Shown here piece by piece: positions 26,840 through 59,450 of a stretch of 64,000 bases of DNA. The stretch covers positions 133,970 to 197,969 of the forward strand of contig JAFLBX010000001.1 in the NCBI GenBank assembly GCA_017303675.1, written 5' to 3'. The translations under genes were made by a program, and so were the position numbers. Each line of letters opens with the position of its first letter. The first letter of the stretch is position 1. The notes below the pieces were generated by a model that worked only from the letters and a program-made list of their open reading frames with translations, searched no databases and had not been told where the DNA came from. The stretch is from Ignavibacteria bacterium (GTDB lineage: Bacteria; Bacteroidota; Ignavibacteria; Tepidaquicellales; OLB5).

Positions 26840-28438
26840 TTGATCAATAAAGTAAAAATACTGGGTTCATTGCTGCTTAAGCTTGAAACAAGGAGTAAAA
26901 CAGGTTCCGGCAGAAAAATGCTGTATCTTAATATTTCTTACTTTATCCCCGGGGTATTTTTACCGTGGCTGCTTCTCAAACAAAACGCTGATCCAACAGG
27001 TTTCCAGTTTTCTTTTATAACATTTCTGTTTTATTCCCTCATTATTGCTTTTACAATAATTACAGAGCTTGATAATCTTATAACAAGTAAAACTGAAACG
27101 GAAGTACTTGCAGCTATGCCGATTGATAACAGGCTTTTGGTTAATGCAAAAATGTATATGGTAACCAGGTACCTGCTGCTGTTGTCGCTTCCGCTGCTTG
27201 TACCCGGAAGTATATATTATTTTGCTATAATGCGTTCCTTTCCAAGAGCGCTGCTTTTCTACCTTTCAGCATTTATGCTGTGTTTTTTTATTACAAATAT
27301 CCTTATCCTTTTGTACAGCGCAGCAATCAGAACCTTCAGGTCAAAAAGTGTTGGTTCATACACAATGGTTTTCCAGGTTATCATGATACTTGTGCTGATA
27401 ATGGCTTACCAGTTTATATCATTCGGCATTACTGGCAAACCGGGCAGCAGCGTAAACGGCTATATTTCTGCGCTTGTTTCAAAAGGATATATAGATTACT
27501 TCCCGCCGGCATGGTTTGCCTTTTTAACTACAAGGAACCAGTACTTACTTGAACCTGCTTTGATTATAAAGCTGATCTCACCACTGCTTATCACTTCTTT
27601 AAGCTATTACAGCTTAAAGCTGTACCTGCTTGAAAATTATCCCCACATCCGTGATAAGTTCATGAATTCAAGATCGATAGGTGAAAGTGTAAAAACCAAA
27701 CAAAGGTTTTTTATTTTTTCTATGATAAGCGACCTTATCCAGAATGTTTATTTAAGAAATAATACTGAACGCTCTTCTTATGGCCTTATACAGGCATTAT
27801 TCAGTAAAGATAAAACCGTACGCCTTGCTGTAATGCCTATGATAATAATACCTTTAGGACTTGCAATCTTTGCCCTGATCACAGACCAGCTTCCGGCACC
27901 TTTTGATAAGAATTATTTTGAGCTTAAGCCTGTATTTCATATTTCGCTGCTGTTAAGCGTACTGGTGGTTCTAAATACAGCTATTATCGGGGTAAAGATA
28001 ACGAATTATCCCGGGGTATCATGGATTTATGATTCATACCCGCTTGTTTCAAAAAAGAATTTTAAAAACGGGTTCAGAAAGTTTTTTGTGGTTTACCTGT
28101 TAATTCCGACCTGCATAGGTCTTGGAATCATTTTCCTGTTTAAAATACCACTTCACCAGGCATTGTTGCATACTGTTTTTATTTTTGCTGCTGCGAATCT
28201 GTATAATACATTGTATAATCTCTTCAGCAAAGTATTACCGTTCACAAAAGAAAACACACTCATAAATTCCCTGCAAAGAATGACTGCGATAATATATCCT
28301 TTCATATACGGCTCAGTTATTGTATTGCTTCAGCTTTTTGTGTATAAAAATATGTTATCAGCCGTAATTGCTGTTCTGGCATTTATTACAATTACTTTCT
28401 GGCTGAATTATTTCGGCTTTGTCCGCAAAAAGGCGTAA
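26840..28438 (+). CDS. polytopic membrane protein of unknown function
   Basis: 532 aa with more than 10 hydrophobic helices. It lies 8 nt after mltG. The start is uncertain: TTG 26840 or ATG 26918. Confidence 0.55.
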   Translation: MINKVKILGSLLLKLETRSKTGSGRKMLYLNISYFIPGVFLPWLLLKQNADPTGFQFSFITFLFYSLIIAFTIITELDNLITSKTETEVLAAMPIDNRLLVNAKMYMVTRYLLLLSLPLLVPGSIYYFAIMRSFPRALLFYLSAFMLCFFITNILILLYSAAIRTFRSKSVGSYTMVFQVIMILVLIMAYQFISFGITGKPGSSVNGYISALVSKGYIDYFPPAWFAFLTTRNQYLLEPALIIKLISPLLITSLSYYSLKLYLLENYPHIRDKFMNSRSIGESVKTKQRFFIFSMISDLIQNVYLRNNTERSSYGLIQALFSKDKTVRLAVMPMIIIPLGLAIFALITDQLPAPFDKNYFELKPVFHISLLLSVLVVLNTAIIGVKITNYPGVSWIYDSYPLVSKKNFKNGFRKFFVVYLLIPTCIGLGIIFLFKIPLHQALLHTVFIFAAANLYNTLYNLFSKVLPFTKENTLINSLQRMTAIIYPFIYGSVIVLLQLFVYKNMLSAVIAVLAFITITFWLNYFGFVRKKA

Positions 28439-28587
28439 ATGTGTCTTTGTTATATTTTTATATTAATGTTGAAAATTGTTGTTTAAACTTCAAAATCAAT
28501 AAAAATAGATATTTTTCAGGTTAAACAGCTGCGCTTATTTCTGCCTCAAAAACCATTAACGTAAATTAATAATTTCTCATTTATTTA

Positions 28588-28616
28588 TTGACAAAACATG
28601 TTTTTTTAGTTATGTT
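28588..28616 (+). promoter_or_regulatory. candidate promoter of the six-gene cargo array
   Basis: TTGACA (28588-28593), a 17-nt spacer, then TATGTT (28611-28616). ATG 28630 lies only about 7 nt beyond the expected TSS and there is no SD. Confidence 0.35.
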
Positions 28617-28629
28617 TTAAAAAAAAGAT

Positions 28630-30375
28630 ATGAAAACCCTCAAAAACTATCTTATTCTCTTATTGATAGCAGCATCAATAATCCAAACAACATTTTTGTT
28701 TTCGCAATCACTTGCCCCGGCTCAAAGCATTTTTATGCAAGGCAATAACATCAATGCAGTTTTCAGAACTGACGGTCTTTTTAATTATGATAAAGTTACT
28801 TTTTCCAGCGGTTCTGCAGGGTTTATCTGGCCGGTTACTTCGCCGCAAAGATTAACAGCGGTGTTTACATCGGGAATATGGATTGGCGCAAAAGTGGGTC
28901 CCCAGCGCGAGCTGAGACTTGCCGCATCATTCTATAACACTCATTATTCACCGGGCAATATTCCGCAAACAGGTCAGGTTCCTCCATCATCTGTCTGCAG
29001 CGATCCCTCCTGGCGCGGGTATTATGTCCAGCTAACTGACCCTTCACTATTTTCAGGTGGTACACGATATAAAACTGCCGGCGGAAGACAATATACATTC
29101 AATTACGATTCTTGGGCAAACTGGCCGGTACAGAAAGGCGCGCCGTATGTTGAAGTAAACGGCATACCCGGTTATCAACCTGCATGGGATGGCGACCGTC
29201 CCGGAATAGGAAACGGTATGACAGCAAGACCCGAAGAACTCTCATTTTTTGTATATATGGATTATTACAACTGCACGAATAATCTACACTATTCAGAATT
29301 ATCTCTACCCGGCGGAACATTACCGATGGGTGTTGAAATACAACAAATTAATTTCATGTTCAACTGCTTCCCGCTTCGGGATATGTACTTTGTAAAATAC
29401 AGGGTCATAAACAAATCTTCATTTAATTGGGATAGTACATTTATTACAAATGTAAATGATCCTGATTTAGGAGAATCAATAGATGATGCATTGGGTTGCG
29501 ATACCGTAAGAAATTTAGGATTTTATTATAATTTCGATAATGATGATCCCGTTTACGGCATGAATCCACCTGCTGTAGGAATGAGATATATTCAAAGCTC
29601 TGTCAGATCTACCGGTAATCAAAATGATACTTTAAGGTTACCTTACGATACATTAATCGGATTCAAACAGAATGGAATGACGGCTTTCAATCGTCTTTCG
29701 GGTGGATCAAATGAATGTTTATCGGATCCCGATAATGCTCATTTTGCTTTTAATTTTATGAGAGGTTTAAATGGATGCGGAGAACCATATATAAATTTTG
29801 TTACCGGGGCACCAACCAGCTTCAAATATAGTGGTAATTCATGTCAGCGAACCGGTTGGTTCGATAGTCTTTGGGGTGATTGCAGAGGATTCATGAGTAC
29901 GGGTCCTGTTACTATGAACTCAGGCGATACACAAATTGTAGTACTAAACTACATGATTACTCGCGATGGCGGCAATAATTTCCAGAACGTTTGCGCGCTG
30001 CAATCGCTGTCAGACTCAGCATTAAAGTACTACTACAACGATTTCCGCACTTGCATGCCCATTGGAATTGAACCGATAAGCACTGAAATTCCGCAAAAAT
30101 TTGAGCTGTTTCAAAATTACCCAAACCCGTTTAACCCGGCTACAAAAATAAGGTTTCATATTCCCCTCTCGAGAGGGGTGGCCGGCGAAGCCGGACGGGG
30201 TGTGTTGCTTAAAATATTTGACATCCTCGGCAAAGAAATTGCAGTGCTGGTTAATGAAAACCTCAAACACGGCATTTATGAAATTGACTGGAATGCTGAA
30301 AATATACCAAGCGGCGTATATTTTTACTCTTTAATAACAAATGAATTCACCCAAACAAAAAAATGGTGGTGTTGA
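28630..30375 (+). CDS. T9SS-sorted Cys-rich secreted protein, family A paralog 1 (altered C-terminus)
   Basis: 581 aa with a signal peptide. Paralog of the genes at 30377, 32095 and 37990. It has the NYPNPFNP...GVYFYSL CTD but ends KKWWC instead of KKMVVVK. Confidence 0.85.
   Translation: MKTLKNYLILLLIAASIIQTTFLFSQSLAPAQSIFMQGNNINAVFRTDGLFNYDKVTFSSGSAGFIWPVTSPQRLTAVFTSGIWIGAKVGPQRELRLAASFYNTHYSPGNIPQTGQVPPSSVCSDPSWRGYYVQLTDPSLFSGGTRYKTAGGRQYTFNYDSWANWPVQKGAPYVEVNGIPGYQPAWDGDRPGIGNGMTARPEELSFFVYMDYYNCTNNLHYSELSLPGGTLPMGVEIQQINFMFNCFPLRDMYFVKYRVINKSSFNWDSTFITNVNDPDLGESIDDALGCDTVRNLGFYYNFDNDDPVYGMNPPAVGMRYIQSSVRSTGNQNDTLRLPYDTLIGFKQNGMTAFNRLSGGSNECLSDPDNAHFAFNFMRGLNGCGEPYINFVTGAPTSFKYSGNSCQRTGWFDSLWGDCRGFMSTGPVTMNSGDTQIVVLNYMITRDGGNNFQNVCALQSLSDSALKYYYNDFRTCMPIGIEPISTEIPQKFELFQNYPNPFNPATKIRFHIPLSRGVAGEAGRGVLLKIFDILGKEIAVLVNENLKHGIYEIDWNAENIPSGVYFYSLITNEFTQTKKWWC
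30163..30194 (+). repeat. in-frame GC-rich double hairpin element, copy 1
   Basis: Perfect 16-bp palindrome CCCCTCTCGAGAGGGG (30163-30178), then CCGGC-GAA-GCCGG (30182-30194). It encodes PLSRGVAGEAG inside the CTD. Confidence 0.6.
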
Positions 30376-30376
30376 A

Positions 30377-32098
30377 ATGAAAAAAATATTAATGTTAATA
30401 CTGATTTTATCATTTAATATATATGCTCAGTCGCTAGCTCCGGTACAAAACATTTTTATGCAGGGCAATAATATAAACGCAGTTTTCAGAACTGACGGTT
30501 ATTTTAATTTTGATATAGTTAATTTTCTAAATGGAAGTGCTGGTTTGGTTTGGCCAAGTACATCTCCTGAAAGATTGACTGGAATTTTCACTTCAGGGTT
30601 ATTCATTGGAGCAAAAGTGGGACCGCAACGGGAGCTCAGGGTTTCTGCATCATTTTATAATACTCATTATTCACCCGGCAATATACCCGTAATTGGTCAG
30701 GTCCCGCCATCATCAGTTTGTAGTGATCCATCATGGCGCGGATATTATGTCCAGTTGACTGACCCTTCGTTAATTTCAGGAGGTACAAGATATAAAACTG
30801 CAGGAGGCAGGCAGTATACGTTTAATTATGATTCATGGGCAGCATGGCCTGTTCAGAAAGGTGCGCCATATGTTGAAGTCAATGGTATTCCCGGCTACCA
30901 GCCAGACTGGAATGGCGATAGACCCGGAATTGGCAATGGAATGACTGCAAGACCCGAAGAATTACTGTTTATGGTTTATATGGATTATACCAATTGCAGA
31001 GATACTATACACAGTTCAGTATTGGGTTTACCCGGTGGTACACTGCCTCTTGGGGCTGAAATACAGCAATTGGTTTACAATTTTAATTGTTTACCTTTAA
31101 GAGACATGTATTTTATTAGTTATAGAATTATAAATAAAAGTAATAGTCATTGGGATAGTTTATATATTTCTAATGTAAATGATGCTGATATTGGAAATTC
31201 AAATGATGATGCTACAGGCTGCGATTCAACAAGAAATCTTTCATTTACTTATAATTTTAATCAGACTGATCCCGAATACGGAAACAACCCGCCTGTTATA
31301 GGAATCAGGATGCTTCAGACACCTATTGTATTTACTGGTATAAACAGCGATACATTAAAACTACCTTATGATACATTAATTGGTTATATAACGACTGGGA
31401 TGTCAGGTTTTAACGGGATAATAGGTGGAGGGAGTGGTTGTACTGCCTATTTGGGACACGCAATTAATGCCTATAATTTCATGCGGGGAAAAGATGGCTG
31501 CGGAAATCCAATAATTAACTGGGTAACAAATAAAACCACAACATTCAGATGGAGTGGTAATGCTTGTTACAGATATGGTTGGTTTGACAGTACCGGTCAG
31601 GAAAAAAGAATGATTAGCAGTATGGGATCAGCTTCTTTGAACTCCGGTGATACACAAATTGTAGTTATGAGTTATATGATAACGCGTGACGGCGGCAATA
31701 ACTTCCAGAATGTATGCGCGCTGCAATCGTTATCTGATTCAGCACTAAAGTATTACTACAACGATTTTCGCACATGTGTGCCTATTGGAATTGAACCAAT
31801 AAGCTCAGAAATTCCCCAAAAATTTGAGCTTTTACAGAATTATCCGAACCCGTTTAACCCGGCTACAAAAATAAGGTTTCATATTCCCCTCTCGAGAGGG
31901 GTGTCCGAAGGACGGGGTGTGTTACTTAAAATTTACGATGTACTCGGCAAGGAAATTGCCGTACTGGTAAATGAAAACCTCAAACCCGGCATTTATGAAA
32001 TTGACTGGAATGCTGAGAACCTTCCTAGCGGCGTATACTTTTACTCTTTATTAACAAATGAATTTACCCAAACAAAAAAAATGGTGGTGGTAAAATGA
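30377..32098 (+). CDS. T9SS-sorted Cys-rich secreted protein, family A paralog 2
   Basis: ATG 30377 lies 1 nt after the upstream stop. Signal peptide MKKILMLILILSFNIYAQS. Full CTD ending KKMVVVK. Confidence 0.85.
   Translation: MKKILMLILILSFNIYAQSLAPVQNIFMQGNNINAVFRTDGYFNFDIVNFLNGSAGLVWPSTSPERLTGIFTSGLFIGAKVGPQRELRVSASFYNTHYSPGNIPVIGQVPPSSVCSDPSWRGYYVQLTDPSLISGGTRYKTAGGRQYTFNYDSWAAWPVQKGAPYVEVNGIPGYQPDWNGDRPGIGNGMTARPEELLFMVYMDYTNCRDTIHSSVLGLPGGTLPLGAEIQQLVYNFNCLPLRDMYFISYRIINKSNSHWDSLYISNVNDADIGNSNDDATGCDSTRNLSFTYNFNQTDPEYGNNPPVIGIRMLQTPIVFTGINSDTLKLPYDTLIGYITTGMSGFNGIIGGGSGCTAYLGHAINAYNFMRGKDGCGNPIINWVTNKTTTFRWSGNACYRYGWFDSTGQEKRMISSMGSASLNSGDTQIVVMSYMITRDGGNNFQNVCALQSLSDSALKYYYNDFRTCVPIGIEPISSEIPQKFELLQNYPNPFNPATKIRFHIPLSRGVSEGRGVLLKIYDVLGKEIAVLVNENLKPGIYEIDWNAENLPSGVYFYSLLTNEFTQTKKMVVVK
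31886..31913 (+). repeat. in-frame GC-rich double hairpin element, copy 2
   Basis: CCCCTCTCGAGAGGGG (31886-31901), then GTCC-GAA-GGAC (31903-31913). Confidence 0.6.
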
Positions 32099-33816
32099 AA
32101 ACAATATATCTGTTAATACTTTTTTTATCATATAATGTTTATTCTCAAGCTCTCGCCCCGGCGCAAAGCATTTTTATGCAGGGCAATAATATCAATGCAG
32201 TATTCAGAACTGACGGGTATTTTAATTATGATAAAGTAACATTTACATATGGTGCTGCGGGCTTTATATGGCCTGTAAATTCTCCTTCAAGGATGACTGC
32301 TGTGTTTACTTCCGGACTCTTCATTGGAGCAAAAGTGGGTCCGCAACGTGAGCTAAGGCTCTCTGCTTCAATGTTTAATTCACATTTTTCGCCGGGTAAT
32401 ATCCCTGTTATTGGACAGGTTCCCGGAACATCAGTTTGCAGCGATCCCTCATGGCGGGGGTATTACGTACAGCTAAGTGACCCTGCATTAATTAATGGAG
32501 GGACCAGATATAAATCAGCTGGCGGCAGACAGTATACTTTTAATTACGATTCATGGGCAAGCTGGCCTGTGCAAAAAGGAGCTCCATATGTAGAAGTCAA
32601 TGGAATTCCCGGCTACCAGCCTGACTGGAACGGCGACAGACCCGGTATTGGTAATGGAATGACAGCAAGACCTGAAGAACTATTGTTTATGGTATTTATG
32701 GATTATACCAATTGCAGAGATACTATACACAGTTCGGAACTTAGTTTACCCGGAGGTACAATGCCTTTAGGAGTAGAAATACATCAATTGGTTTATAATT
32801 TTAACTGCTTCCCGCTTAGAGATATGTATTTCATTAAATACAAGTTCATCAACAAAAGCTCACAGGTTTGGGATAGTACATGGATATCAAATATAAATGA
32901 TTTCGATTTGGGTAATTCAAATGATGATGCAACCGGATGCGATTCAACAAGAAATCTTTCATTCACTTATAATTTTGATAACAATGATCCCGAATACGGA
33001 ACTAACCCCCCTGTTGCAGGTACAAGATTCCTTCAATCTCCTTTAAGATATACAGGAAACAATTCTGATACAGCTAAACTGCCTTATGATACTTTAACCG
33101 GATATAAAATGACGGGGATGACAGGTTTTTTCAGGTTTATTGGCGGAGGTAATGAATGTTTTGGTGATCCTGATGAGGCTTTTAGAGCATATAATTTTAT
33201 GCGTGGAAAAGATGGCTGCGGCAATACGTTAATTAATTGGGTTACTAATCAGCCAACAACATATTTGTGCTCAGGAAATGCGTGTTTAAGAACCGGTTGG
33301 TTTGATAGTGTATCCGGGGATAAAAGAGGAATTTCGAATATGGGTCCGGTTACAATGCAGCCGGGTGATACACAAATTGTGGTATTAAGCTATATGATAA
33401 CCCGCGATGGCGGCAACAATTTCCAGAATGTTTGTGCTCTGCAATCGTTATCAGATTCAGCATTAAAGTACTACTACAACGATTTCCGAACATGTGTGCC
33501 GATTGGTATTGAACCGATAAGCGCAGAAATTCCACAAAAATTTGAGTTGGTACAGAATTATCCAAATCCGTTTAATCCGGTTACAAAAATAAGGTTTCAT
33601 ATTCCCCTCTCGAGAGGTGTGTCCGCAGGACGGGGTGTATTACTTAAAATTTACGATGTCCTTGGCAAAGAAATAGCCGTACTGGTTAACGAAAACCTCA
33701 AACCCGGCATTTACGAAATCGACTGGAACGCCGAAAACATACCAAGCGGCGTTTATTTTTACTCTTTAATAACAAATGAATTTACCCAAACAAAAAAGAT
33801 GGTGGTGGTAAAATGA
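32095..33816 (+). CDS. T9SS-sorted Cys-rich secreted protein, family A paralog 3
   Basis: ATGA overlap with the upstream gene, a signal peptide and the CTD. Confidence 0.85.
   Translation: MKTIYLLILFLSYNVYSQALAPAQSIFMQGNNINAVFRTDGYFNYDKVTFTYGAAGFIWPVNSPSRMTAVFTSGLFIGAKVGPQRELRLSASMFNSHFSPGNIPVIGQVPGTSVCSDPSWRGYYVQLSDPALINGGTRYKSAGGRQYTFNYDSWASWPVQKGAPYVEVNGIPGYQPDWNGDRPGIGNGMTARPEELLFMVFMDYTNCRDTIHSSELSLPGGTMPLGVEIHQLVYNFNCFPLRDMYFIKYKFINKSSQVWDSTWISNINDFDLGNSNDDATGCDSTRNLSFTYNFDNNDPEYGTNPPVAGTRFLQSPLRYTGNNSDTAKLPYDTLTGYKMTGMTGFFRFIGGGNECFGDPDEAFRAYNFMRGKDGCGNTLINWVTNQPTTYLCSGNACLRTGWFDSVSGDKRGISNMGPVTMQPGDTQIVVLSYMITRDGGNNFQNVCALQSLSDSALKYYYNDFRTCVPIGIEPISAEIPQKFELVQNYPNPFNPVTKIRFHIPLSRGVSAGRGVLLKIYDVLGKEIAVLVNENLKPGIYEIDWNAENIPSGVYFYSLITNEFTQTKKMVVVK
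33604..33631 (+). repeat. in-frame GC-rich double hairpin element, copy 3 (first stem degenerate)
   Basis: CCCCTCTCGAGAGGTG (palindromic core CCTCTCGAGAGG), then GTCC-GCA-GGAC (33621-33631). Confidence 0.5.
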
Positions 33817-35897
33817 AAAAGTTAATTTTTTTGATACTGCTATGCCCTTCTTCAATTCTTCTTTCCCAGGGAGGGTGGGAACTGGTTTACTCAGGTAATA
33901 TTTCATCTTACCCGGTTTACAGGGATATTAATTTTATAAATGAAACTACAGGTTTCACATTAACTAATTTTGGCTTACTGAAAACTACGAACTCATCTCA
34001 TAGCTGGAACCAGGTTATAATTCCGGGATTAACAGGAGAGATCAGCTGTTATTATATTCTAAATGAAAATAATATATGGGTCTTAACAGATCATAAAGTT
34101 AACTATACTTCAAACGGAGGTATAAACTGGAATACCATTGATACAACAATTTCAGAGCCCATGTCAATCAGCTTCATAAATGCTCTAAGCGGCTGGGTTT
34201 GCGGAAACGGCGGAATGATCAAAAAAACTACTAATGGCGGCTTTAACTGGATAAGCTGCATATCAGGAACTAATGATAATCTCAGAACGATATCATTCCA
34301 AAATGCCAATAACGGGGTTTGCGCGGGCGACTGGGGAAAAATTCTTTCAACAATAAACGGCGGGTTAAACTGGATAGTTTTTACGGATCCTTACCAGGGT
34401 TTTTTTAAAAATTCGCTCTTCTACTCACAAAATTTTTATATTAGCGGCTCAGGAGTCAATATCTACAGAAGCTCTAATAACGGAAATAACTGGAGCCTTT
34501 CATATCTTAATGCTTCGGTTATTTCCAGCATCAGATTCAATTCACAGGGAAGAGGTTTTGCTTTTGGCTCACCAAATGATATTTTTTCATCAATTAATAA
34601 CGGGCTATCGTGGGAACGGATGAGTCCAAACGGGTTAAACCCTGCAGTTTATGGCTCATCTGTTACCCCAAACGGAACTATATGGATAGCTGCTGACAGC
34701 AGCATGATATTAAATTCAACTAATTCCGGCGCAGGCTGGAATGAGATCATCCGGAATTATATAACCGGGGAAAATTTAAATGCTGTTTATTTTACTGACC
34801 AATTCTCAGGTATAGCATGCGGGAATAAAGGAGTACTTATTAAATCTACTAATGGCGGAGTGAACTGGAAACATACCGGTTTAAATGAAACAGGAAATCT
34901 AAGGTCAGTAAAATTTACTGATAATAACACGGGTTTTATCTGCGGCGGTAACGGTTCAACTGAGGGAGTAATTTACCGAACAACGGATTTTGGGACATCC
35001 TGGGTAAATCAATTCAGGGATTCTTCCCACTTGAACAGTATTTTTTTTATCAATTCTCAAACAGGCTGGGCAGCCGGTGTAAAAGGTATATTTTTAAAAA
35101 CCACAAATAGCGGTATAATCTGGGTAAGAGAGCGTTTTCAAGATACTACTATAAATAATATTTCTTTCTTAAATAATAATACAGGTTTTATTTGCAGCAG
35201 GAAAATATATAAAACCACTAACTCAGGAACAAACTGGTACCAGGTTTTGAATAATCCATCATATCAAATACAGGTTACAGGCAATACCATTTATGCGCTA
35301 AGCAAATCCTTAAACGTGAATTATATAAATAAAAGCACTGATTTTGGTGAATCCTGGAGCAGTACTTCGCAGGGAAGCGGTTCAAATTTCAGCTTTTACT
35401 TTGTTAACTCTGAGACAGGATGGTTTAGTAACAGTTCAGCAGTCAGAAGGACTACAAATGGCGGAGCAAACTGGAGCATACAGCCCGGCACAGGGATTTC
35501 AGTATTAACTATCTTTTTTACAGATCCTTTGCATGGTTGGGTTGCCGGTAATTCCGGTTCAATCGCAAGAACCATAACAGGGGGAATAGGTATAACACAA
35601 ATATCATCTGATGTACCAATGGATTACCAATTGCAGCAAAACTATCCAAATCCTTTCAATCCCGCTACAAAAATAAGATTCAATATTCCTGCATTTGCAG
35701 AGATAACCCGGCGGATCGTCTCCCTGAAAATTTACGATATACTTGGCAAAGAAATTGCCGTACTTGTAAACGAAAATCTCAAACCCGGCATTTATGAAGT
35801 TGAGTGGAATGTACAAAATATTCCAAGTGGTGTGTATTTTTACTCTTTAATAACCAATGAATTTACCCAAACAAAAAAGATGGTAGTGGTAAAATGA
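33813..35897 (+). CDS. T9SS-sorted BNR/Ycf48-like beta-propeller repeat protein, family B paralog 1
   Basis: 694 aa with a signal peptide. It has many (K/R)(T/S)TNGGxNW repeats. The last ~58 aa of the CTD are nearly identical to the family A tail. ATGA overlaps occur at both ends. Confidence 0.85.
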   Translation: MKKLIFLILLCPSSILLSQGGWELVYSGNISSYPVYRDINFINETTGFTLTNFGLLKTTNSSHSWNQVIIPGLTGEISCYYILNENNIWVLTDHKVNYTSNGGINWNTIDTTISEPMSISFINALSGWVCGNGGMIKKTTNGGFNWISCISGTNDNLRTISFQNANNGVCAGDWGKILSTINGGLNWIVFTDPYQGFFKNSLFYSQNFYISGSGVNIYRSSNNGNNWSLSYLNASVISSIRFNSQGRGFAFGSPNDIFSSINNGLSWERMSPNGLNPAVYGSSVTPNGTIWIAADSSMILNSTNSGAGWNEIIRNYITGENLNAVYFTDQFSGIACGNKGVLIKSTNGGVNWKHTGLNETGNLRSVKFTDNNTGFICGGNGSTEGVIYRTTDFGTSWVNQFRDSSHLNSIFFINSQTGWAAGVKGIFLKTTNSGIIWVRERFQDTTINNISFLNNNTGFICSRKIYKTTNSGTNWYQVLNNPSYQIQVTGNTIYALSKSLNVNYINKSTDFGESWSSTSQGSGSNFSFYFVNSETGWFSNSSAVRRTTNGGANWSIQPGTGISVLTIFFTDPLHGWVAGNSGSIARTITGGIGITQISSDVPMDYQLQQNYPNPFNPATKIRFNIPAFAEITRRIVSLKIYDILGKEIAVLVNENLKPGIYEVEWNVQNIPSGVYFYSLITNEFTQTKKMVVVK

Positions 35898-37993
35898 AAA
35901 AAATAATACTGTTTATTTTTATAATTCTTATCTTCAAACTGGATTCATTTGGCGGCTGGGAAGTAATTTATCCCGGTTTGAATATTTACGGATCATATTA
36001 TAAGGATATAGCGTTTTTCAATGATCAGACCGGATGGCTGTTAACACAATCAGATGTAAGAAAAACCACAAACGGCGCTCAGACCTGGATAAAGTATGAC
36101 CTTTCAAGGGGCTATTACACATCAATGACCTGCGCCCAGTTTCTCAATAAAGATACAGGCTGGGTATTAGTCGGCAAATTCCTGAACTTTACAACAAATA
36201 GCGGAGCAAACTGGACGATAATGGATTCTTCTACTTCTAATATCAAAAGTATGCATTTTCTTGATATCAATAACGGCTGGGCATGTGGCAGCAGCGGTTC
36301 AGTTTATAAAACCACAAATGGAGGAAAAAACTGGTTAAGTATAAATACGGGCACATCAAACAATTTAAATGCTGTTTCATTTGCAGATAATAACTTTGGA
36401 GTTTGCGGGGGTGATTGGGGCACTATTATATGGACAACAAATGGTGGATTGAATTGGAATAATTTTACAGATAGTTATATTAATTTCTTTACAAATGTAA
36501 AATGTTTCAATAACCAAACCTGCATCGTTACAGGTACAGGAAGCATTTTATACCGGACAACCAATCGCGGAGCATCATGGCAGCCTCATTTTACAAATTT
36601 ATTAATACAGAATACTATTGAGCTTGATCCAGCAAACAACGGTTATATTTTCGGTTCTCCGAATTCTTTTATAAGAACGGCAAATTCAGGAAGTACGTGG
36701 GAAACGATTACTTCCGTGAGCTTGTTTTCCCGGTTATATTCAGCTTCAATCACACCATCAAATACATTCTGGTGTGCAGCAGATAGCGGTATTATATTCA
36801 GATCATCCACTAACGGTAACAATTGGGATATAGCTTACAGGGAATACATTACCCAGGAAAATTTAAAATCAGTATACTTTGTAAATCAGTCAACTGGTTT
36901 AGCAGCTGGTACACACGGAATAATGCTTCGAACAACCAATGGCGGAATCAACTGGAACAGTCAGTTCCTTGGTACAGATAAAACATTTAATTCAATTCAG
37001 TTCGTTAATTCAGAAACAGGATATGCAGCAGGGGGTGAAAGCTATAGCTTTGGTATAGTTTATAAAACTACAAATTCCGGCATCAGCTGGCAGCAGGTTT
37101 ACCGTGATTCACTGCAGTTGGTTTCAGTACATTTTATAAATCCATCAACAGGATGGAGCGCAGCCAACAGCAGGGCAATAATTAAAACCACGGATGCAGG
37201 AAATAACTGGAGTAAATCCATTATAACAACAACTCAACCCCTAAATAATATTTATGATATTTTTTTTATTAATGAAAACACCGGGTTTATAGGAAGTACC
37301 GGAATGTATAAAACAACTGACGGTGGTATAAACTGGTACAGGGTACTTGTTTATATTACACAATCCATCCAGTTTATTGGGAATAGCGGTTTTGCAATTA
37401 CTAATGCAGCAGGAAATTTCATGAAATCAACAAACACCGGCGAAAACTGGGTGTCATATCCAACCGGAGGAAGTTACAGAGGAGACGTATTTTTCATTAA
37501 TACTGAAACAGGCTGGGTTAATACACCGAATATTATCCGTAAGACTACTAATGGAGGTATTAACTGGGCTGTACAAAACACTGACTTAAACTCAATTTCT
37601 GCCAACGCATTATTTTTTATTAATGAAAATATTGGCTGGGCTGCAGGCAATTATGGCGGTATAATGCGAACAACTAACGGCGGCATAGGAATTTCAACTA
37701 TTTCAACGGAAATTCCCAGGCAGTTCAATTTGTACCAGAATTATCCTAACCCATTTAATCCGGTAACAAAGATAAGATTCAGTATTCCCTCTACTCTGGA
37801 GAACCGGCAATCAGTCTCGCTGAAAATATACGACATTCTCGGCAAAAAAATCGTCGTGCTGGTAAACGAAAATCTGCTACCCGGAACTTATGAAACTGAA
37901 TGGAATGCCTCAAATTATTCAAGCGGTATATATTTTTACAGTCTAATAACTGATAACTTCACCCAAACCAGAAAGATGGTATTAATAAAATGA
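35894..37993 (+). CDS. T9SS-sorted BNR/Ycf48-like beta-propeller repeat protein, family B paralog 2
   Basis: 699 aa with the same repeat architecture (KTTNGGKNW, RTTNGGINW...). The CTD ends RKMVLIK. Confidence 0.85.
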   Translation: MKKIILFIFIILIFKLDSFGGWEVIYPGLNIYGSYYKDIAFFNDQTGWLLTQSDVRKTTNGAQTWIKYDLSRGYYTSMTCAQFLNKDTGWVLVGKFLNFTTNSGANWTIMDSSTSNIKSMHFLDINNGWACGSSGSVYKTTNGGKNWLSINTGTSNNLNAVSFADNNFGVCGGDWGTIIWTTNGGLNWNNFTDSYINFFTNVKCFNNQTCIVTGTGSILYRTTNRGASWQPHFTNLLIQNTIELDPANNGYIFGSPNSFIRTANSGSTWETITSVSLFSRLYSASITPSNTFWCAADSGIIFRSSTNGNNWDIAYREYITQENLKSVYFVNQSTGLAAGTHGIMLRTTNGGINWNSQFLGTDKTFNSIQFVNSETGYAAGGESYSFGIVYKTTNSGISWQQVYRDSLQLVSVHFINPSTGWSAANSRAIIKTTDAGNNWSKSIITTTQPLNNIYDIFFINENTGFIGSTGMYKTTDGGINWYRVLVYITQSIQFIGNSGFAITNAAGNFMKSTNTGENWVSYPTGGSYRGDVFFINTETGWVNTPNIIRKTTNGGINWAVQNTDLNSISANALFFINENIGWAAGNYGGIMRTTNGGIGISTISTEIPRQFNLYQNYPNPFNPVTKIRFSIPSTLENRQSVSLKIYDILGKKIVVLVNENLLPGTYETEWNASNYSSGIYFYSLITDNFTQTRKMVLIK

Positions 37994-39711
37994 AAACTTT
38001 AATATTATTTATTGCTCTTAGCTATTCTGTTTATGGACAGTCACTCGCTCCGGCGCAAAGCATATTTATGCAGGGCAATAATATTAACTCTGTTTTCAGA
38101 ACAGATGGCTATTTTAACTACGATAAAGTAACTTTCCTGAATGGAAACGGAGGTTTTTTATGGCCTGTAACTTCACCTATACGAATGAGTGCTATTTTTA
38201 CAACGGGTATCTGGATCGGCACAAAAGCGGGTCCGCAGCGTGAACTAAGGCTTGCGGCATCTACATATAATTCCCATTATTCACCCGGTAATATTCCCGT
38301 AATTGGTCAAGTACCGCCGTCATCAGTTTGCACAGATCCTTCCTGGCGGGGATATTATGTACATTTAAATGATCCTGCTCTTTTTAACGGCGGCACGAGA
38401 TATAAGATGGCAGGAGGGAGACAATATACCTTCAATTATGATTCCTGGGCAAGCTGGCCCGTGCAGAAAGGTGCGCCATATGTTGAAGTAAACGGTATAC
38501 CCGGTTACCAGCCTGCATGGAATGGGGACAGACCTGGTATCGGTAACGGTATGTCAGCAAGACCTGAAGAAATATTATTTATGGTATTTATGGATTATAC
38601 TAACTGCACTGATTCCATTCACACAAGCGAAATGAGTTTACCCGGGGGTTCAAAACCATTAGGAGTAGAAATTCAACAAATAGTTTTCAATTTCAATTGT
38701 TTCCCATTGCGTGATATGTATTTTGTAAAATACAGAATAATAAATAAAAGTTCATTGGTTTGGGATAGTACCTATATAGGTATTTGCAGTGATACCGATC
38801 TGGGCGATGCCGGTGATGATGTAACCGGATGTGATACAACAAGAAATATGGGATTTGTATATAATTATGATAATAATGACCCGATTTACGGAACAAATCC
38901 TCCAGCAGTTGGTATTAGGCTGCTGCAAAGTCCTTTGCGTTTTACAGGTTCAAACTCTGATACTGTAAAACTGCCTTATGATACTCTAATAGGTTATAAA
39001 TCAATTGGTATGAGTTCGCATATGTCATTTAAAAATAACGGGCCTTGCTATTCAGATCCATCTGATGCTGTAACCGCATACAATCTTTTATCCGGTTTTA
39101 ATGGATGTGGTGAACAATTGATAAATTGGGTAACAGGTCAGCCAACAAAATTCCTATACAGCGGAAATGCCTGTCAGCGCACAGGCTGGTACGATAGTAA
39201 TTCCCAGGATGTAAAAAATTTTATCGGCTCAGGCCCGTATATTATGAATTCCGGTGATACACAAATTGTAATGACAAGTTTTATGATCACACATGAAGGA
39301 GGCAATAATCTGCAGAATGTTTGTGCATTACAGACTCTTTCCGATACTGCTCTGTCAAACTATTACAGGGATTTTTCTAATTGTATTCCCATAGGTATCG
39401 AACCAATAAGCAGTGAAATCCCTCAAAAATTTGAGCTGGCACAGAATTATCCAAATCCGTTTAATCCTGTTACAAAATTTCGATTCTCCATTCCCCTCTC
39501 AAGAGGTGTGGACGGCATAGCCGGACGGGGTGTGTTGCTTAAAATTTACGATGTACTTGGCAAGGAAATTTCCGTTCTGGTAAACGAGCAGCTCAAGCCC
39601 GGCATTTATGAAATTGACTGGAACGCTGAGAACATACCAAGCGGCGTATATTTTTATTCACTCATAACAAATGAATTTACCCAAACAAAAAAAATGGTGG
39701 TGGTAAAATAG
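37990..39711 (+). CDS. T9SS-sorted Cys-rich secreted protein, family A paralog 4
   Basis: 573 aa and the most diverged A copy. The CTD ends KKMVVVK-TAG. This is the last gene of the array. Confidence 0.85.
   Translation: MKTLILFIALSYSVYGQSLAPAQSIFMQGNNINSVFRTDGYFNYDKVTFLNGNGGFLWPVTSPIRMSAIFTTGIWIGTKAGPQRELRLAASTYNSHYSPGNIPVIGQVPPSSVCTDPSWRGYYVHLNDPALFNGGTRYKMAGGRQYTFNYDSWASWPVQKGAPYVEVNGIPGYQPAWNGDRPGIGNGMSARPEEILFMVFMDYTNCTDSIHTSEMSLPGGSKPLGVEIQQIVFNFNCFPLRDMYFVKYRIINKSSLVWDSTYIGICSDTDLGDAGDDVTGCDTTRNMGFVYNYDNNDPIYGTNPPAVGIRLLQSPLRFTGSNSDTVKLPYDTLIGYKSIGMSSHMSFKNNGPCYSDPSDAVTAYNLLSGFNGCGEQLINWVTGQPTKFLYSGNACQRTGWYDSNSQDVKNFIGSGPYIMNSGDTQIVMTSFMITHEGGNNLQNVCALQTLSDTALSNYYRDFSNCIPIGIEPISSEIPQKFELAQNYPNPFNPVTKFRFSIPLSRGVDGIAGRGVLLKIYDVLGKEISVLVNEQLKPGIYEIDWNAENIPSGVYFYSLITNEFTQTKKMVVVK
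39493..39523 (+). repeat. in-frame GC-rich double hairpin element, copy 4 (first stem degenerate)
   Basis: CCCCTCTCAAGAGGTG, then CGGC-ATA-GCCG (39513-39523). Confidence 0.45.
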
Positions 39712-39740
39712 ATTTTACAATTTGATTCATCAACCAAAAT

Positions 39741-39772
39741 GGTGTCAGGTATATACCTGACACCACTTTTTT
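39741..39772 (+). terminator. strong intrinsic terminator ending the six-gene array
   Basis: Perfect 24-nt palindrome GGTGTCAGGTAT/ATACCTGACACC, followed two nt later by T6. Confidence 0.75.
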
Positions 39773-39828: not shown

Positions 39829-42285
39829 TTGGGCTTTAAAATTAAAAAATTGATGAATTCAGCCCAAAATCCGGTTTCAGTTTCAAAAAATAATTATATT
39901 GGAATATTCCTCGTAGCGCTTTCAACCTTAATGTATGAAATACTGCTTACGCGTATTTTCAGCGTTACTATGGGTTATCATTTTGCGTTTATGGCAGTAT
40001 CTCTGGCAATGTTCGGTATGACTGTTGGAGCTATAATTGTTTATATATTCCCTCATAAATTCCCACAGGAAAAAATAAATATTATATTAACAAAACAGGC
40101 GTTTTATTTCAGTATAGCAACACTTTTAAGCTTTTTAATTCATCTGTTCATTCCCTTCATTCACGGTATGTCCTTATTGGGAATGGCTGTAACTGCGTTT
40201 ACTTATGCAGAAATTTCCGTGCCATTCGTATTCAGCGGAATATGTATCTCGCTGCTTTTAACACGATTCCCTGCATCAGTTAACAAGCTTTATGCCGCTG
40301 ATCTGATAGGTGCTTCATTGGGCTGTATTCTTGTGGTAGTGGTGCTTAATGTTTCAGGCGGACCCACAGGTGTATTTATTACTGCGCTGTTTTCTGCTGC
40401 AGCAGCATATACCTTCAGCCGAAACTCTGAAATAAAAACATCGATCGGTAAATCCATTGCAGTATTTTCTCTTGTAATACTTGTATTTTCGGTATTTCAT
40501 ACAGTTCTTGTTCAAAAACATGAACCGCTTCTCAGATTATTCTGGGTTCGCGGTGAATGGGCTGAAAAGCCTTTATATGAAAAATGGAACTCGTTCAGCC
40601 GTGTAAGCATTGATGGCGACTCAACCAAATATGAAACGCCGTTTGGCTGGGGTTTAAGCAATAAGTATGACCGCTCAAGGAAAATACGTCAGCTTATGCT
40701 GAATATCGATGCGCATTCAACAACAGTGCTTTCGCACTTTAACGGAGATACATCAGAGCTTTCGCATTTAAAATATGATGTATCGAACCTTGCACAATAT
40801 ATGCGTCCTAACGGCGATATAATGATCATCGGCAGCGGCGCAGGGCGCGATGTGCTTTCATCACTGGCATTTGGGCAAAAAAATATCCTAGGCATTGAAA
40901 TAAATAAGGATATGATAAGCGCTATCAATAATGATTTTGGCAATTTTACCGGGCACCTTGATAAATATCCGCATGTTGAGTTTGTCGGTGATGAAGCCCG
41001 AAGTTATATTCAGAGAATGGATAGCTCCCGGAAATTCGATATCATACAGGTTTCAGTAATTGATAACTGGTCTGCTGCAGCATCAGGTGCATTTGTACTC
41101 ACGGAAAACGCATTATACACCACAGAAACCTGGAAGCTGCTCTTTAGCAGGCTGAAACCTGATGGAATATTAACCGTTACCCGTTTTTACCGTGCAAAGC
41201 CAATTGAACATTACAGGCTAATGAACATAACTGCTGATGCTCTTTTGGAATCCGGTATCAAAGATATCCGCAGCCATGTTATGCTGATAAAATGCCAGCA
41301 GCAGGAACGACTCGAGGACAGAAGCGGCACTGGTACACTTCTAATCAGCAAAACACCGTTCAGCAGCAAAGATCTGAACATGGTTGATAGTCTTTGCAGA
41401 ACATTTGAATTTGAAGATATCATTTCTCCCCGAAATGCGGCAGACTCGGTTTTTGTTAAGCTCACAAATGAAAACCTAAGGGGTAACCTTAATAATAACT
41501 TTCCGCTAGATATCACTTCACCAAGCGATGATAAGCCTTTTTTCTTCCATTATATGAATTTTACAGACCTGCCAAATACTCAATTATGGAATATGTGGGA
41601 TATGGGCTTTAATGCAAAAGCTATATTCATCCTGCTGACTCTTGCCGGTACAATGGGATTTTTATCTCTTTTGTGTATAATTGTTCCGCTTAAGCTTACC
41701 GCCAAAAAGATTCAGCTTAAAGGCACTTCATCATTCTTTATCTATTTTACCGGTCTTGGTCTAGGCTTTATGCTTATAGAAATTTCACAGATACAGAGGC
41801 TTAATATATTCCTTGGTCACCCGACATTTAGCCTTGCGGCGGCACTGTTTACAATGCTGCTTTCAAGCGGAATAGGCAGCTTTTTAAGCGGGGCTGATAA
41901 ACCCGGTGCTGCAGGAAAAAGTAAATTGAGGTTTATTATATTGATGATCATACTGGTATTATTTGGTCTATTTACACCTTATATAGTTGAAACTTTCAGG
42001 GAGTATTCAACTGAAATCAGGGTTTTGGTTTCTGTACTTATACTTTTTCCAATGGGATTATTCCTCGGAATGGCATTCCCGATCGGTATGAAACTTGCCG
42101 GTGAAAAGGCTCCCGGAATTACACCGTGGTTATGGGGTATTAATGGTGTAATGAGTGTTCTTGCAACTGTACTTTCAATAATAATCGCAATGAATTACGG
42201 AATTTCATCTTCTTATTGGGCCGGAGCAATATGTTATTTAGCAGCGTTTGCTGCGCTGCTTTCTTTTACAAAAAAGAGAGCTTAA
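39829..42285 (+). CDS. spermidine synthase-like (class I MTase fold) protein flanked by two polytopic membrane modules
   Basis: The N-terminal module carries YEILLTRIFSVTMGYHFAFMAVSLAMFGMTVGA. The central part has IIGSGAGRDVLSSLAFGQKNILGIEIN, a Rossmann motif. The C-terminal module repeats the membrane motif (LIEISQIQRLNIFLGHPTFSLAAALFTMLLSSGIGS). The start is TTG 39829 or ATG 39853. Confidence 0.7.
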   Translation: MGFKIKKLMNSAQNPVSVSKNNYIGIFLVALSTLMYEILLTRIFSVTMGYHFAFMAVSLAMFGMTVGAIIVYIFPHKFPQEKINIILTKQAFYFSIATLLSFLIHLFIPFIHGMSLLGMAVTAFTYAEISVPFVFSGICISLLLTRFPASVNKLYAADLIGASLGCILVVVVLNVSGGPTGVFITALFSAAAAYTFSRNSEIKTSIGKSIAVFSLVILVFSVFHTVLVQKHEPLLRLFWVRGEWAEKPLYEKWNSFSRVSIDGDSTKYETPFGWGLSNKYDRSRKIRQLMLNIDAHSTTVLSHFNGDTSELSHLKYDVSNLAQYMRPNGDIMIIGSGAGRDVLSSLAFGQKNILGIEINKDMISAINNDFGNFTGHLDKYPHVEFVGDEARSYIQRMDSSRKFDIIQVSVIDNWSAAASGAFVLTENALYTTETWKLLFSRLKPDGILTVTRFYRAKPIEHYRLMNITADALLESGIKDIRSHVMLIKCQQQERLEDRSGTGTLLISKTPFSSKDLNMVDSLCRTFEFEDIISPRNAADSVFVKLTNENLRGNLNNNFPLDITSPSDDKPFFFHYMNFTDLPNTQLWNMWDMGFNAKAIFILLTLAGTMGFLSLLCIIVPLKLTAKKIQLKGTSSFFIYFTGLGLGFMLIEISQIQRLNIFLGHPTFSLAAALFTMLLSSGIGSFLSGADKPGAAGKSKLRFIILMIILVLFGLFTPYIVETFREYSTEIRVLVSVLILFPMGLFLGMAFPIGMKLAGEKAPGITPWLWGINGVMSVLATVLSIIIAMNYGISSSYWAGAICYLAAFAALLSFTKKRA

Positions 42286-42371: not shown

Positions 42372-43304
42372 TTACTTGGTTGGTTTAGGCGGAATAAAAT
42401 CTGATCGTTTTTTCATCAGCTGTGATGCTAATGCAGCAAATAATTTAAACAGCTGGTTATTTCCGCTTACCTGAGTTATATATGAAGCAACAGCATTCGG
42501 ATCAGTCTGTGCTTCTTTATATAAATTTATCACTGTTGGCTGGCCTGCCCCGTTAATAGTAACTGTGTAAGTTGGCACCGGGAATGTTGTCATGACAGTA
42601 TCTTTAAAATCATCAGTGTTAAAGTTTGCCAGCAGATTTAAAAACCCTTCCATAACAGAAGAAGATACTGAATCACCAGCGATACTCCACTTACCAGCTG
42701 AATCCTTTGCAACCGTAAAATCTACTTTATTTGAATCAGAGGATTTAAATGAGACTGAGTTTACTGTAAACGGCTGGATTGACAAGATAAATTTATTCCT
42801 GTAATCTTTTGATGGCTTTGTAAACAAAGCGGATGTTAATTCAGAAGCCAGTAAGATCCTGTTCTCTTCCGGTTTTTTGATATAGGAATTATTTGTAGAT
42901 TGTGTTTTACCCAGTATAAAAGTACCCAGCAGCTTTCCTTCCTGGTATGTTGAGATCAGGGAATTATTCACTGAATCCAGATAGCTGTTGAATTTAGCCG
43001 GATTTTCCGAGGCAATACTTTCAATTGTAAAATTTTTCAGATCTTTTAAAAGCAAATATACATTTGTAGTATCAGCAGGATAGTTTATTGGCTTAGTCAG
43101 CTGCCACTGGTTGTTAATTTTTTCCAGTACCACAGTCTCACCTGTTTTTACAATTTCAATTTTATCAATTTTGGATGAATCTGCTACAAACAGCTTCGCA
43201 TCGATTTTTTCAGTTGATACTTTTTCGCCGGTTCTGAAGAACAGGAAATATAATGCAATAAGTACCGCGAAAACTGCAAGTAATATTTTAATTGTTTTAT
43301 TCAT
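42372..43304 (-). CDS. DUF4340-like protein (last gene of GldG-type ABC operon)
   Basis: 310 aa with an N-terminal TM anchor and a beta-rich remainder. Its position directly after a GldG-like gene matches the usual DUF4340 synteny. The family name is from memory. Confidence 0.5.
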   Translation of the reverse strand: MNKTIKILLAVFAVLIALYFLFFRTGEKVSTEKIDAKLFVADSSKIDKIEIVKTGETVVLEKINNQWQLTKPINYPADTTNVYLLLKDLKNFTIESIASENPAKFNSYLDSVNNSLISTYQEGKLLGTFILGKTQSTNNSYIKKPEENRILLASELTSALFTKPSKDYRNKFILSIQPFTVNSVSFKSSDSNKVDFTVAKDSAGKWSIAGDSVSSSVMEGFLNLLANFNTDDFKDTVMTTFPVPTYTVTINGAGQPTVINLYKEAQTDPNAVASYITQVSGNNQLFKLFAALASQLMKKRSDFIPPKPTK

Positions 43305-43356
43305 ATACTGCTGTAATTATATCTTTTCTATTGATTTCTTTGGTTAATAATTTCTA

Positions 43357-45084: not shown

Positions 45085-45131
45085 ATTTGTATATTAAAGA
45101 TACTTGTTATTAAATTAATATAATTACCGGT

Positions 45132-45854
45132 TTACCACTTTCTGCTTTCAAGTGAAACCTTTGTTAAGAAGATCGTGAAAAATATCATAGAGAAGTAATA
45201 AATAAGCACTCGTGAATCGATAACTCCCCTGGATATATTGCTTAAATGATAGTCGGTAGTTAAATATTCAAAAAAGGAAACTACTGATGTCGGGAAAACT
45301 ATAAGCAGCTTTCCGAAAAGGAAAAAGAATAAACAGATAAGCACGCTTACAATAAATGCAATGATCTGGTTTTCGGTGAGTGATGAAACAAATACACCTA
45401 TACCGATAAAGAACGCGCTCATCAATATGTAGCCTAACAGGCTTGTTAAGAACGGCCAGAAAGGAATGGGTCCGATCATTTTAATGATAATGAAATATAA
45501 AACTGTAGGTGAAAGCGTTATAACTATCAGTGTGAGCGCTGAGAGATATTTGCCGAGAATAAGCTCAATATCAGTGACTGGCTTGGTAAGCAGCAGCTCA
45601 AGGGTTCCCTGTTTCTTTTCTTCAGAAAAGCTGCGCATTGTGATAGCCGGAATAAACACAACAAAGAGCACAAGCTGGATAAAGAAGCTGCCGAAAAATT
45701 CCCTCATTGAAGCTATATTTATCTGGAAGAAGCTCATTGTGAACAGGAATCCGGATATTGCCATAAACACTATCATAACAATATAAGCTACCGGGGAATT
45801 AAAGTATGATTTAAGCTCTTTTGTAAAAATTGTTTTTATATTCTGTGTATTCAT
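45132..45854 (-). CDS. ABC-2 type transporter permease (GldF-like)
   Basis: 240 aa with 6 TM helices. FNSPVAYIV and FSEEKKQGTLELLLT are typical ABC-2 / GldF-like N-terminal motifs. Confidence 0.75.
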   Translation of the reverse strand: MNTQNIKTIFTKELKSYFNSPVAYIVMIVFMAISGFLFTMSFFQINIASMREFFGSFFIQLVLFVVFIPAITMRSFSEEKKQGTLELLLTKPVTDIELILGKYLSALTLIVITLSPTVLYFIIIKMIGPIPFWPFLTSLLGYILMSAFFIGIGVFVSSLTENQIIAFIVSVLICLFFFLFGKLLIVFPTSVVSFFEYLTTDYHLSNISRGVIDSRVLIYYFSMIFFTIFLTKVSLESRKW

Positions 45855-45858
45855 AGTA

Positions 45859-49134: not shown

Positions 49135-49259
49135 AACAAGGTGAAATATATTACTAAAACTTAACAAAATAATGGTGTGTTTTCAATACCATAATCCAAA
49201 ATTATTATTTTCAGTAAATTATATGTTATAATTTCAAATATCTCATTATCTTGCTTTAA

Positions 49260-50066: not shown

Positions 50067-50071
50067 AAAAA

Positions 50072-59434: not shown

Positions 59435-59450
59435 TTTAAATTCAATTAAG

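Follow-up and report, generated by a model that had tools for sequence, protein, structure and literature searches.

Operons whose genes are joined by ATGA stop/start overlaps are well known, with trpE-trpD, trpB-trpA, and many ribosomal-protein operons as familiar examples. The products of gingipain and haemagglutinin genes, in turn, associate on the cell surface. In P. gingivalis, rgpA, kgp, and hagA encode cargo of the type IX secretion system (T9SS) sharing C-terminal adhesin and C-terminal domain (CTD) modules, and the gingipain/haemagglutinin genes diversify via domain rearrangement and gene conversion (PMC5266723). The locus considered here lies in a 64,000-nucleotide (nt) stretch of DNA from an Ignavibacteria bacterium, referred to below as the window. 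At positions 28630-39711 of its plus strand, six open reading frames (ORFs) follow one another in the order A-A-A-B-B-A, where A and B denote two families of T9SS cargo with different ectodomains. The array is interpreted as an operon of T9SS surface-protein cassettes that varies through recombination, is joined by ATGA overlaps, and occupies a conserved chromosomal slot. The probability of this reading is estimated at about 60%.

The first gene, A1 (28630-30375), encodes a protein of 581 amino acids (aa) with a longer putative signal peptide, an A domain, and a T9SS type-A CTD, and it represents the A paralog typical of the first position. A2 (30377-32098) and A3 (32095-33816) each encode 573 aa with a putative signal peptide, an A domain, and a CTD; in A3 the A domain (residues ~20-465) is all-beta with one long helix and is followed by a linker. 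A longer ORF at A2, starting at 30341, is an upstream extension only. B1 (33813-35897; 694 aa) comprises a putative signal peptide, a Ycf48/BNR-like propeller region with the length of two propellers, and a CTD, and B2 (35894-37993; 699 aa) has a B1-like architecture. The last gene, A4 (37990-39711; 573 aa), is an A paralog from a clade usually located 3' of a B2-type gene. All six products match the sorting-domain models PF18962 of Pfam (29.4-44.6 bits, cut-off 27) and TIGR04183 (37.2-41.1 bits, cut-off 23), and the profile of the A family matches the CTD chain 8glj_D in the PDB. By eye, each N-terminus consists of MK(K/T), 12-20 hydrophobic residues, and then ..SQ(S/A)LAP or ..SQGGW, and by inspection the six signal peptides look typical. 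The extreme end of the CTD, corresponding to the last beta-strand (..KMVVxK), is intact in five of the six products, the exception being A1. A first-pass annotation of the window had described six packed same-strand T9SS cargo genes in this order, each with a type-A sorting domain; the ORFs, their coordinates, and the sorting domains are all confirmed.

All six genes, in both families, are closed by a 187-nt repeat that comprises the CTD end and the junction. Its plus-strand copies are located at 30193-30379 (83% identical to the reference copy), 31910-32096 (the reference copy), 33628-33814 (90%), 35709-35895 (83%), 37805-37991 (70%), and 39523-39709 (90%), the fourth and fifth of them at the ends of the B genes. 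The gene bodies are about 55-85% identical at the DNA level among the A genes and ~50% identical between B1 and B2. The last 150 nt of B1, by comparison, are 86-87% identical to those of A2 and A3 and 76% identical to those of B2. The same pattern is found in other genomes: for 28 of 41 array genes in ten genomes, the CTD-coding end is nearer to a non-orthologous neighbour in the array than to the CTD of the ortholog of the gene body. The CTD identity reaches 95% between A1 and A3 of locus L002, which are two different A types, 99% between the first and last genes of L006, and 88% between an A and a B gene of L018. This homogenisation within arrays indicates concerted evolution at the 3' repeat, through either gene conversion or unequal crossing-over. 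In neighbour-joining trees, the ectodomains fall into multi-species clades of A-first, A3-type, A4-type, B1-type, and B2-type sequences; A1 shares an orthologous clade with the leading genes of L002, L006, and L009. The array positions of these five paralog types are permuted between species. Judged from the sequences compared, the paralog lineages are shown to predate the species. The first-pass annotation overlooked the main structural point, namely the 187-nt 3' repeat as a substrate for cassette shuffling. Since this repeat is shared by all six genes, it explains how shuffling and a constant junction can go together, and because the CTD-end repeat itself carries the ATGA joint, shuffling would never break expression.

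ATGA stop/start overlaps are present at four junctions of the window, as had been noted at first pass: 32095/32098, 33813/33816, 35894/35897, and 37990/37993. The gap at each of them is -4, and the gap between A1 and A2 is +1, which is a frameshifted -4. The 3' end of A1 reads ACAAAAAAATGGTGGTGTTGA, that is, ACA AAA AAA TGG TGG TGT TGA, with a run of seven A where the paralogs have eight. This A8-to-A7 deletion frameshifts the last codons to KKWWC* (30356-30375), and adding one A yields KKMVVLK* with a TGA that overlaps the ATG at 30377. All five junctions of the window are therefore of one kind, the A1/A2 junction being a damaged ATGA, and its earlier description as a 1-nt gap type has to be replaced by that of an ATGA broken by a 1-nt deletion. 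The orthologous gene of the near-identical strain L071 has a normal, intact ending. The A7 run may be either a real slip mutation, of an inactivating or phase type, or a homopolymer sequencing error. The last beta-strand of the CTD is required for T9SS sorting. The frameshift alters this strand in A1, and unless it is a sequencing error, the secretion competence of A1 is uncertain. At the other end of the array, A4 terminates in ...KKMVVVK TAG with no downstream start.

The junction type extends well beyond the window. In the arrays of about a dozen related Ignavibacteria metagenome-assembled genomes (MAGs), 48 of 49 junctions are ATGA (AB 16, BA 18, AA 11, BB 3), and the sole non-ATGA junction is the frameshifted A1/A2 of the window. 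The ATGA junctions that the first-pass annotation proposed to look for at A/B adjacencies in related genomes are thus found. As the arrays concerned differ in order, the coupling is conserved and the order is not. No -4 overlap occurs at the other same-strand junctions of the window, and A and B genes outside arrays have ordinary spacers of 50-2,000 nt. In each cassette, the last codons, ..TQTKKMVV.K, run directly into ATGA, so that the stop overlaps the next start. The share of GTG among valine codons is 51% in the last seven codons versus 14% in the gene bodies, and this enrichment points to a nucleotide-level constraint or to repeated conversion at the joint. Apart from the TAG of A4, the array genes stop with TGA; in 8 of the 10 non-array CTD genes of the window the stop is TAA. 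The leaders of window genes are A/T-rich, as in Bacteroidota-type initiation independent of a Shine-Dalgarno (SD) site. The GGTGGTG motif at the joint was considered as an SD site, which is not claimed, as even by a loose criterion an SD-like motif precedes only 9 of the 43 non-array genes of the window. Because genes 2 to 6 have no leader of their own and SD sites are rarely used in this genome, these genes would be translated mainly by termination-reinitiation.

A scan of species-representative genomes provided 66 loci, whose ORFs were classed with hidden Markov models for the A domain, the B domain, and the CTD. Ignavibacteria MAGs contain many homologs of family A; one of them, P0021, is identical to A2 over the truncated N-domain compared. 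The flanks of the array are colinear in all loci compared. The slot is bounded on one side by a TPR protein, YceG, and a ~532-aa protein and on the other by a ~810-818-aa spermidine-synthase-like protein, DUF4340, and a GldG/GldF/GldA-like ABC transporter. Between these flanks, composition and order differ in nearly every species: AAABBA in the window, ABABA in L001 and L002 (probably from the same data set), AAABAA in L006, ABABAA with a further A beyond in L009, AABA with a B beyond in L026, ABA in L018, AABAB in L007, (A)BBAA+B in L003, AA in L020, and a single A in L025. The A:B ratios among the arrays include 4:2, 3:2, 5:1, 2:1, 2:0, and 1:0. B is missing in two of them (L020 and L025), and A is present in all arrays and always first. 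Consequently, neither the fixed order nor the obligate co-translation of two families proposed in the first-pass annotation can be maintained. The adjacency of A and B, which it had suggested looking for in related genomes, does recur in the array and at several other loci.

Variation is also visible between strains. L071, known from a second, independent assembly, has flanks 96-98% identical to those of the window and lacks exactly one cassette period of 1,723 nt, with A2 missing as a separate cassette. Its first gene is a mosaic: it follows A1 at the 5' end and A2 over the last 120 nt, and its centre of ~700 nt is only 55-70% identical to any paralog of the window. The cassette loss and the mosaic gene together indicate that recombination is active on the time-scale of strains. 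The divergent centre suggests that the A domain may have a hypervariable face. The same gene (8253-10004 in L071) does not contain the otherwise invariant DD..GCD motif and reads NDPDLGNFSSEPAGSD instead. These differences would be explained most simply by gene conversion and unequal homologous recombination acting on the shared 3' repeats and occasionally inside the gene bodies. Such recombination would add, delete, permute, or mosaicise whole cassettes while automatically keeping the ATGA joint.

A promoter-like block with a short A-rich leader occupies 28563-28629 of the plus strand (AAATTAATAATTTCTCATT..TTGACA(28588)-17 nt-TATGTT(28616)..AAAAAAAAGAT) and is followed by the ATG at 28630. 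The upstream site scores 10/12 against a sigma-70-like consensus, although the real promoter consensus of the host may differ. A scan of the window with the sigma-70 consensus returned 50 sites versus 49.2 expected by chance and was rejected as a promoter discriminator. The promoter block is near-identical 5' of the first array gene in seven of the eight species compared (the window, L002, L006, L009, L018, L020, and L026), and the remaining intergenic DNA around it does not align between species. The upstream promoter is therefore supported by its phylogenetic footprint and not by its consensus score. The first-pass claim of only one promoter-like site does not survive as a statement about consensus matches; the upstream site itself stands. 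At the 3' side, an intrinsic terminator lies at 39740-39772 (plus strand) and consists of a hairpin at 39740-39765 with an 11-bp stem and a 4-nt loop, followed by a T-run. The hairpin has a folding energy of -18.8 kcal/mol (z = -6.7) and is also present 3' of the array in L002. No comparable hairpin was found inside the array, in agreement with the earlier description of one very strong downstream terminator. The array would thus be expressed as one ~11-kb mRNA. In the region of about 47-61 kb, five of the eight minus-strand cargo genes have their own 10-12 bp hairpin and T-run, and the contrast drawn at first pass with that region holds.

The assignment of family B as a double-length propeller was also correct. 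PF14870 (cut-off 27) is matched by B1 with 89.8 bits and by B2 with 124.6 bits, the best PDB sequence matches of B are Ycf48 structures, and B1 contains five K/R-T-T-N-G-G-x-N-W motifs by a strict pattern. The scores against the Ycf48 equivalog model NF010237 (cut-off 326) are 109.6 bits for B1 and 150.9 bits for B2. Being far below the equivalog cut-off, B is a double-length paralogous propeller and not Ycf48. Two other identities were considered and rejected: PorZ, because NF052228 (T9SS_PorZ) gives no match to B1 or B2 at E<=0.1, and GH74, which has no sequence support.

A connection between the two families is visible in fusion proteins. Eight of the 150 top A representatives are propeller fusions, seven with the arrangement propeller-A-CTD and one, P0126 (1,788 aa), with A-A-B-CTD; the fusions P0334, P0348, and P0350 of a distant subfamily carry PSII_BNR/Sortilin domains. 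The distant locus L069 encodes three more propeller-A-CTD fusions beside single-propeller CTD proteins and ends with a propeller gene (418 aa) that overlaps an A gene (540 aa) by 4 nt. A and B also occur together at two other types of locus in Ignavibacteria MAGs, one with A, ~1.8 kb, and B (625 aa), and the other with A (an 828-aa fusion), c577, B416, and A576. Single- and double-propeller CTD proteins also stand alone with their own terminators. The fusions and the repeated A/B adjacency at other loci argue for a functional link between A and the propellers. Given that A is always present and always first in the array, it is taken as the core component, and the partnership with the propeller is concluded to be real but facultative.

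As the first-pass annotation had proposed, family A is uncharacterised and widespread, spanning several phyla of the FCB group. The A-domain profile, with the CTD excluded, finds 6,103 cluster representatives (clustered at 50% identity) at E<=1e-3 and 1,188 at E<=1e-30. The named relatives belong to Ignavibacteriales, Melioribacteraceae, Bacteroidota, and Fidelibacterota, and one of them is the isolate Fidelibacter multiformis. In 44 diverse members scanned at relaxed E-values, the A domain is not covered by any Pfam or NCBIfam model, and PDB searches with a single sequence and with the 44-member profile return CTD matches only. The ~470-aa N-terminal part of the A proteins thus has no Pfam, NCBIfam, or PDB sequence match. 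A viral library gave only partial Ig/CTD-like matches, and literature searches turned up neither this array nor the A domain.

An AF2 model of A3 from a shallow alignment was unusable (pLDDT 58), and a deeper alignment of 44 sequences raised the pLDDT to 90.5, with a pTM of 0.78. The model comprises an all-beta domain (~25-440) and a long helix (444-461), which a flexible linker connects to the CTD sandwich; the A domain amounts to ~450 aa. The best Foldseek matches in the PDB are a GH15-like dextran dextrinase, the polysaccharide lyase BACCELL_00875, GH116 beta-glucosidases, and GH94 phosphorylases; the entries include 9ju0 and 5nok (E 1.7e-6 to 3e-4, probability 1.0). As A has no (alpha/alpha)6 barrel, the likeness would lie in the beta-supersandwich N-domains of these enzymes. 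The structure search proposed at first pass gives weak fold matches only and no well-characterised enzyme family. An assignment of A as a GH116/GH94/GH15-type enzyme was rejected, since A is all-beta except for two helices and has neither the catalytic barrel nor the sequence signature of these families. The residues invariant across the superfamily are D269-x-D271-x-G273-x3-D277-D278-x2-G281-C-D283 ... Y292-N293 ... D298 ... Y301, and from this pattern the acidic loop is probably Ca2+-binding or, alternatively, an acidic active-site loop. Among P0318/P0320/P0321, P0343/P0365, and P0172, the A domain is found fused to Peptidase_M28, also in the isolate Fidelibacter multiformis, and to dockerin, and in one Ignavibacteria protein it is annotated as TasA/camelysin-like. 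The M28 and dockerin fusions fit an extracellular, polymer-directed role for A and do not prove it. At a separate conserved locus lies a gene for a protein of ~1,090-1,120 aa that has an A domain at its N-terminus and in which no CTD is detectable. This gene is found in L038, L040, L041, L043, L046, L049, L050, L052-L056, L058, and L065, always ~3 kb 3' of a run of ~590-610-aa CTD proteins.

The proposed function builds on these domain assignments. The products would be attached to the cell surface by the T9SS, and A and the propeller would act together there to bind or process a polymer outside the cell, with a glycan as the likeliest candidate. The array would supply a strain-variable repertoire of A and propeller modules in graded amounts. 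Several observations weigh against parts of this account or against the operon model itself. Inside the array, four plus-strand sigma-70-like sites score 10/12, equal to the upstream site and at chance frequency, and from these matches internal promoters are possible. The ATGA joint could persist through continual gene conversion and not through selection for coupling. The arrays of L020 and L025 contain no B, and A therefore does not need array-encoded B. Most comparison loci are short-read MAGs, in which repeats are open to misassembly, although the repeats here are only 70-95% identical. As for the function, Ycf48 itself binds protein and not sugar, the fold likeness of A is weak (query-length-normalised TM-score, TMq, of 0.17-0.31 at an rmsd of ~11 A or more), and it covers only the non-catalytic domain of the matched enzymes. 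Because the similarity is weak and restricted to a non-catalytic domain, the glycan role is a guess. Binding or processing of glycans on the cell surface is put forward tentatively as the best one available, and it is the weakest step of the account.

Three other explanations of the array have to be compared with the variable cassette operon. The first-pass annotation favoured an A+B module or multi-subunit complex, and in its strict form A and B would be subunits of an obligate surface complex whose fixed order and coupling set the stoichiometry. The ATGA coupling at every A/B joint, the recurrence of A/B adjacency at other loci, and the A-propeller fusions, which constitute "Rosetta-stone" evidence, all speak for some association. 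However, the order and the A:B ratio vary (from 4:2, 3:2, and 5:1 through 2:1 to 2:0 and 1:0), arrays always start with A and may be without B, the number of cassettes differs even between strains, and propeller CTD proteins also occur alone with their own terminators. In view of the variable order, ratio, and cassette number, a complex of fixed stoichiometry is improbable. Of the original proposal, the link between A and the propellers is retained, and a looser A+B partnership is plausible.

A second alternative is neutral birth and death of tandem paralogs, in which the ATGA would be passively copied by unequal crossing-over and A and B would be functionally unrelated. The shared 3' repeat and the homogenised CTDs offer a purely mechanical route to such an array, and with 14 CTD genes in 64 kb, several of them propellers, a chance adjacency of A and B is not negligible. 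This explanation is nevertheless judged unlikely, as 48 of 49 joints are still exactly -4 in spite of gene bodies that share no more than 55-80% nt identity, A and B genes outside arrays have spacers of 50-2,000 nt, and synonymous GTG codons are enriched at the joint. Moreover, unless there is a functional link, it is difficult to account for propeller-A fusions that arose independently in distant lineages. It is also conceivable that the differences in order and copy number are misassembled repeats in metagenome bins and that the true array is uniform. The loci do come from MAGs, and some CTD repeats are 95-99% identical within an array. Most repeats, however, are only 70-90% identical and thus too divergent to collapse, the tree places different paralog types, and not merely different counts, at given positions, and the flanks are colinear in all loci. 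L071 furthermore combines a clean loss of one period with a divergent mosaic segment found nowhere in the window. An assembly artefact is accordingly very improbable, and the variable cassette operon is preferred to all three.

The surroundings of the array may be described briefly. The GC content of the window is 37.8%, and no RNA family of Rfam reaches the gathering threshold anywhere in positions 1-64000. The window contains 14 CTD-bearing genes, and no core T9SS gene (PorK/L/M/N, Sov, PorU/V) was identified within its 64 kb. The conserved flanks are a 532-aa protein (26840-28438) with no family match and an 818-aa protein (39829-42285) whose matches are weak and spermidine-synthase-like; synteny of the two is kept in all species examined. 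A GldA/F/G-like transporter cluster at 42372-46794 on the minus strand consists of DUF4340, ABC_transp_aux (GldG-like), an ABC-2 permease, and an ABC ATPase; it adjoins the array and is syntenic in all related loci. A second cluster at 46990-60809, also on the minus strand, contains eight T9SS CTD genes, among whose products are Ycf48-like propeller proteins of the single and double kind (432, 411, and 725 aa). An individual terminator follows most of these genes, and the A domain is missing from all of them. The homologous cluster in L045, L051, and L060 includes an 828-aa propeller-A fusion and a 576-aa A protein.

The array provides a concrete case of how a T9SS surface repertoire can diversify by whole-gene cassette exchange at a repeat that carries both the secretion signal and the joint. 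Such arrays are likely to vary between strains of the abundant Ignavibacteria of wastewater and sediment, and in practice they are likely to be misannotated, as illustrated by the spurious longer ORF at A2 and the frameshifted A1. The analysis also draws attention to a very large domain superfamily without a curated model, which now has a confident structural model and a recurrent propeller partner. The A model and its BNR/Ycf48-like partner offer experimenters a starting hypothesis. A more far-reaching possibility, which is speculative, is that the CTD-end/ATGA repeat is a built-in recombination linker that makes the operon self-shuffling with no loss of expression and gives each strain a distinct surface coat, and that A and the BNR/Ycf48 propellers form an unrecognised two-part extracellular machine of the FCB group, encoded either in one chain or in coupled genes.

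The individual components of the array resemble several known proteins without being equivalent to any of them. B belongs to the same fold family as Ycf48/HCF136, the seven-bladed assembly factor of photosystem II (PDB 2xbg, 5ojr, 8am5), as indicated by its PF14870 and PDB matches. However, at double the length and secreted with a T9SS CTD, it is a different protein; phototrophy is not known in its lineage. B resembles PorZ in its overall architecture, with a type-A CTD behind a region that has the length of two propellers, but PorZ is a single-copy component of the machinery, whereas B is of the Ycf48/BNR type and occurs in multiple, variable copies. A is all-beta like the N-domains of GH116, GH94 (cellobiose/chitobiose phosphorylase), GH15-like enzymes, and BACCELL_00875, which are its best Foldseek matches. 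In contrast to the GH116, GH94, and GH15-like enzymes, it has no (alpha/alpha)6 barrel, and at 7-12% sequence identity there is no relationship at the sequence level.

At the level of the whole locus, the closest precedents are the gingipain/HagA genes and the ATGA-coupled operons. The gingipains and the array products are alike in being surface proteins with a conserved T9SS CTD of ~80 aa, in their combinatorial modularity, and in a strain diversity that stems from recombination at shared 3' sequences. The gingipain loci, however, are dispersed and monocistronic, whereas here complete genes are joined by ATGA in one operon; the shuffled unit is the whole gene and not the domain, and the ectodomains (A and the Ycf48-like propeller) are unrelated to those of the gingipains. 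As in classical ATGA operons, stops and starts overlap, there is no intergenic leader, and termination-reinitiation is expected. Classical operons of this kind encode different subunits in a fixed order, whereas the present array consists of interchangeable paralog cassettes of variable order and number, with the joint located inside the repeat. What is new at this locus is the combination of the two precedents.

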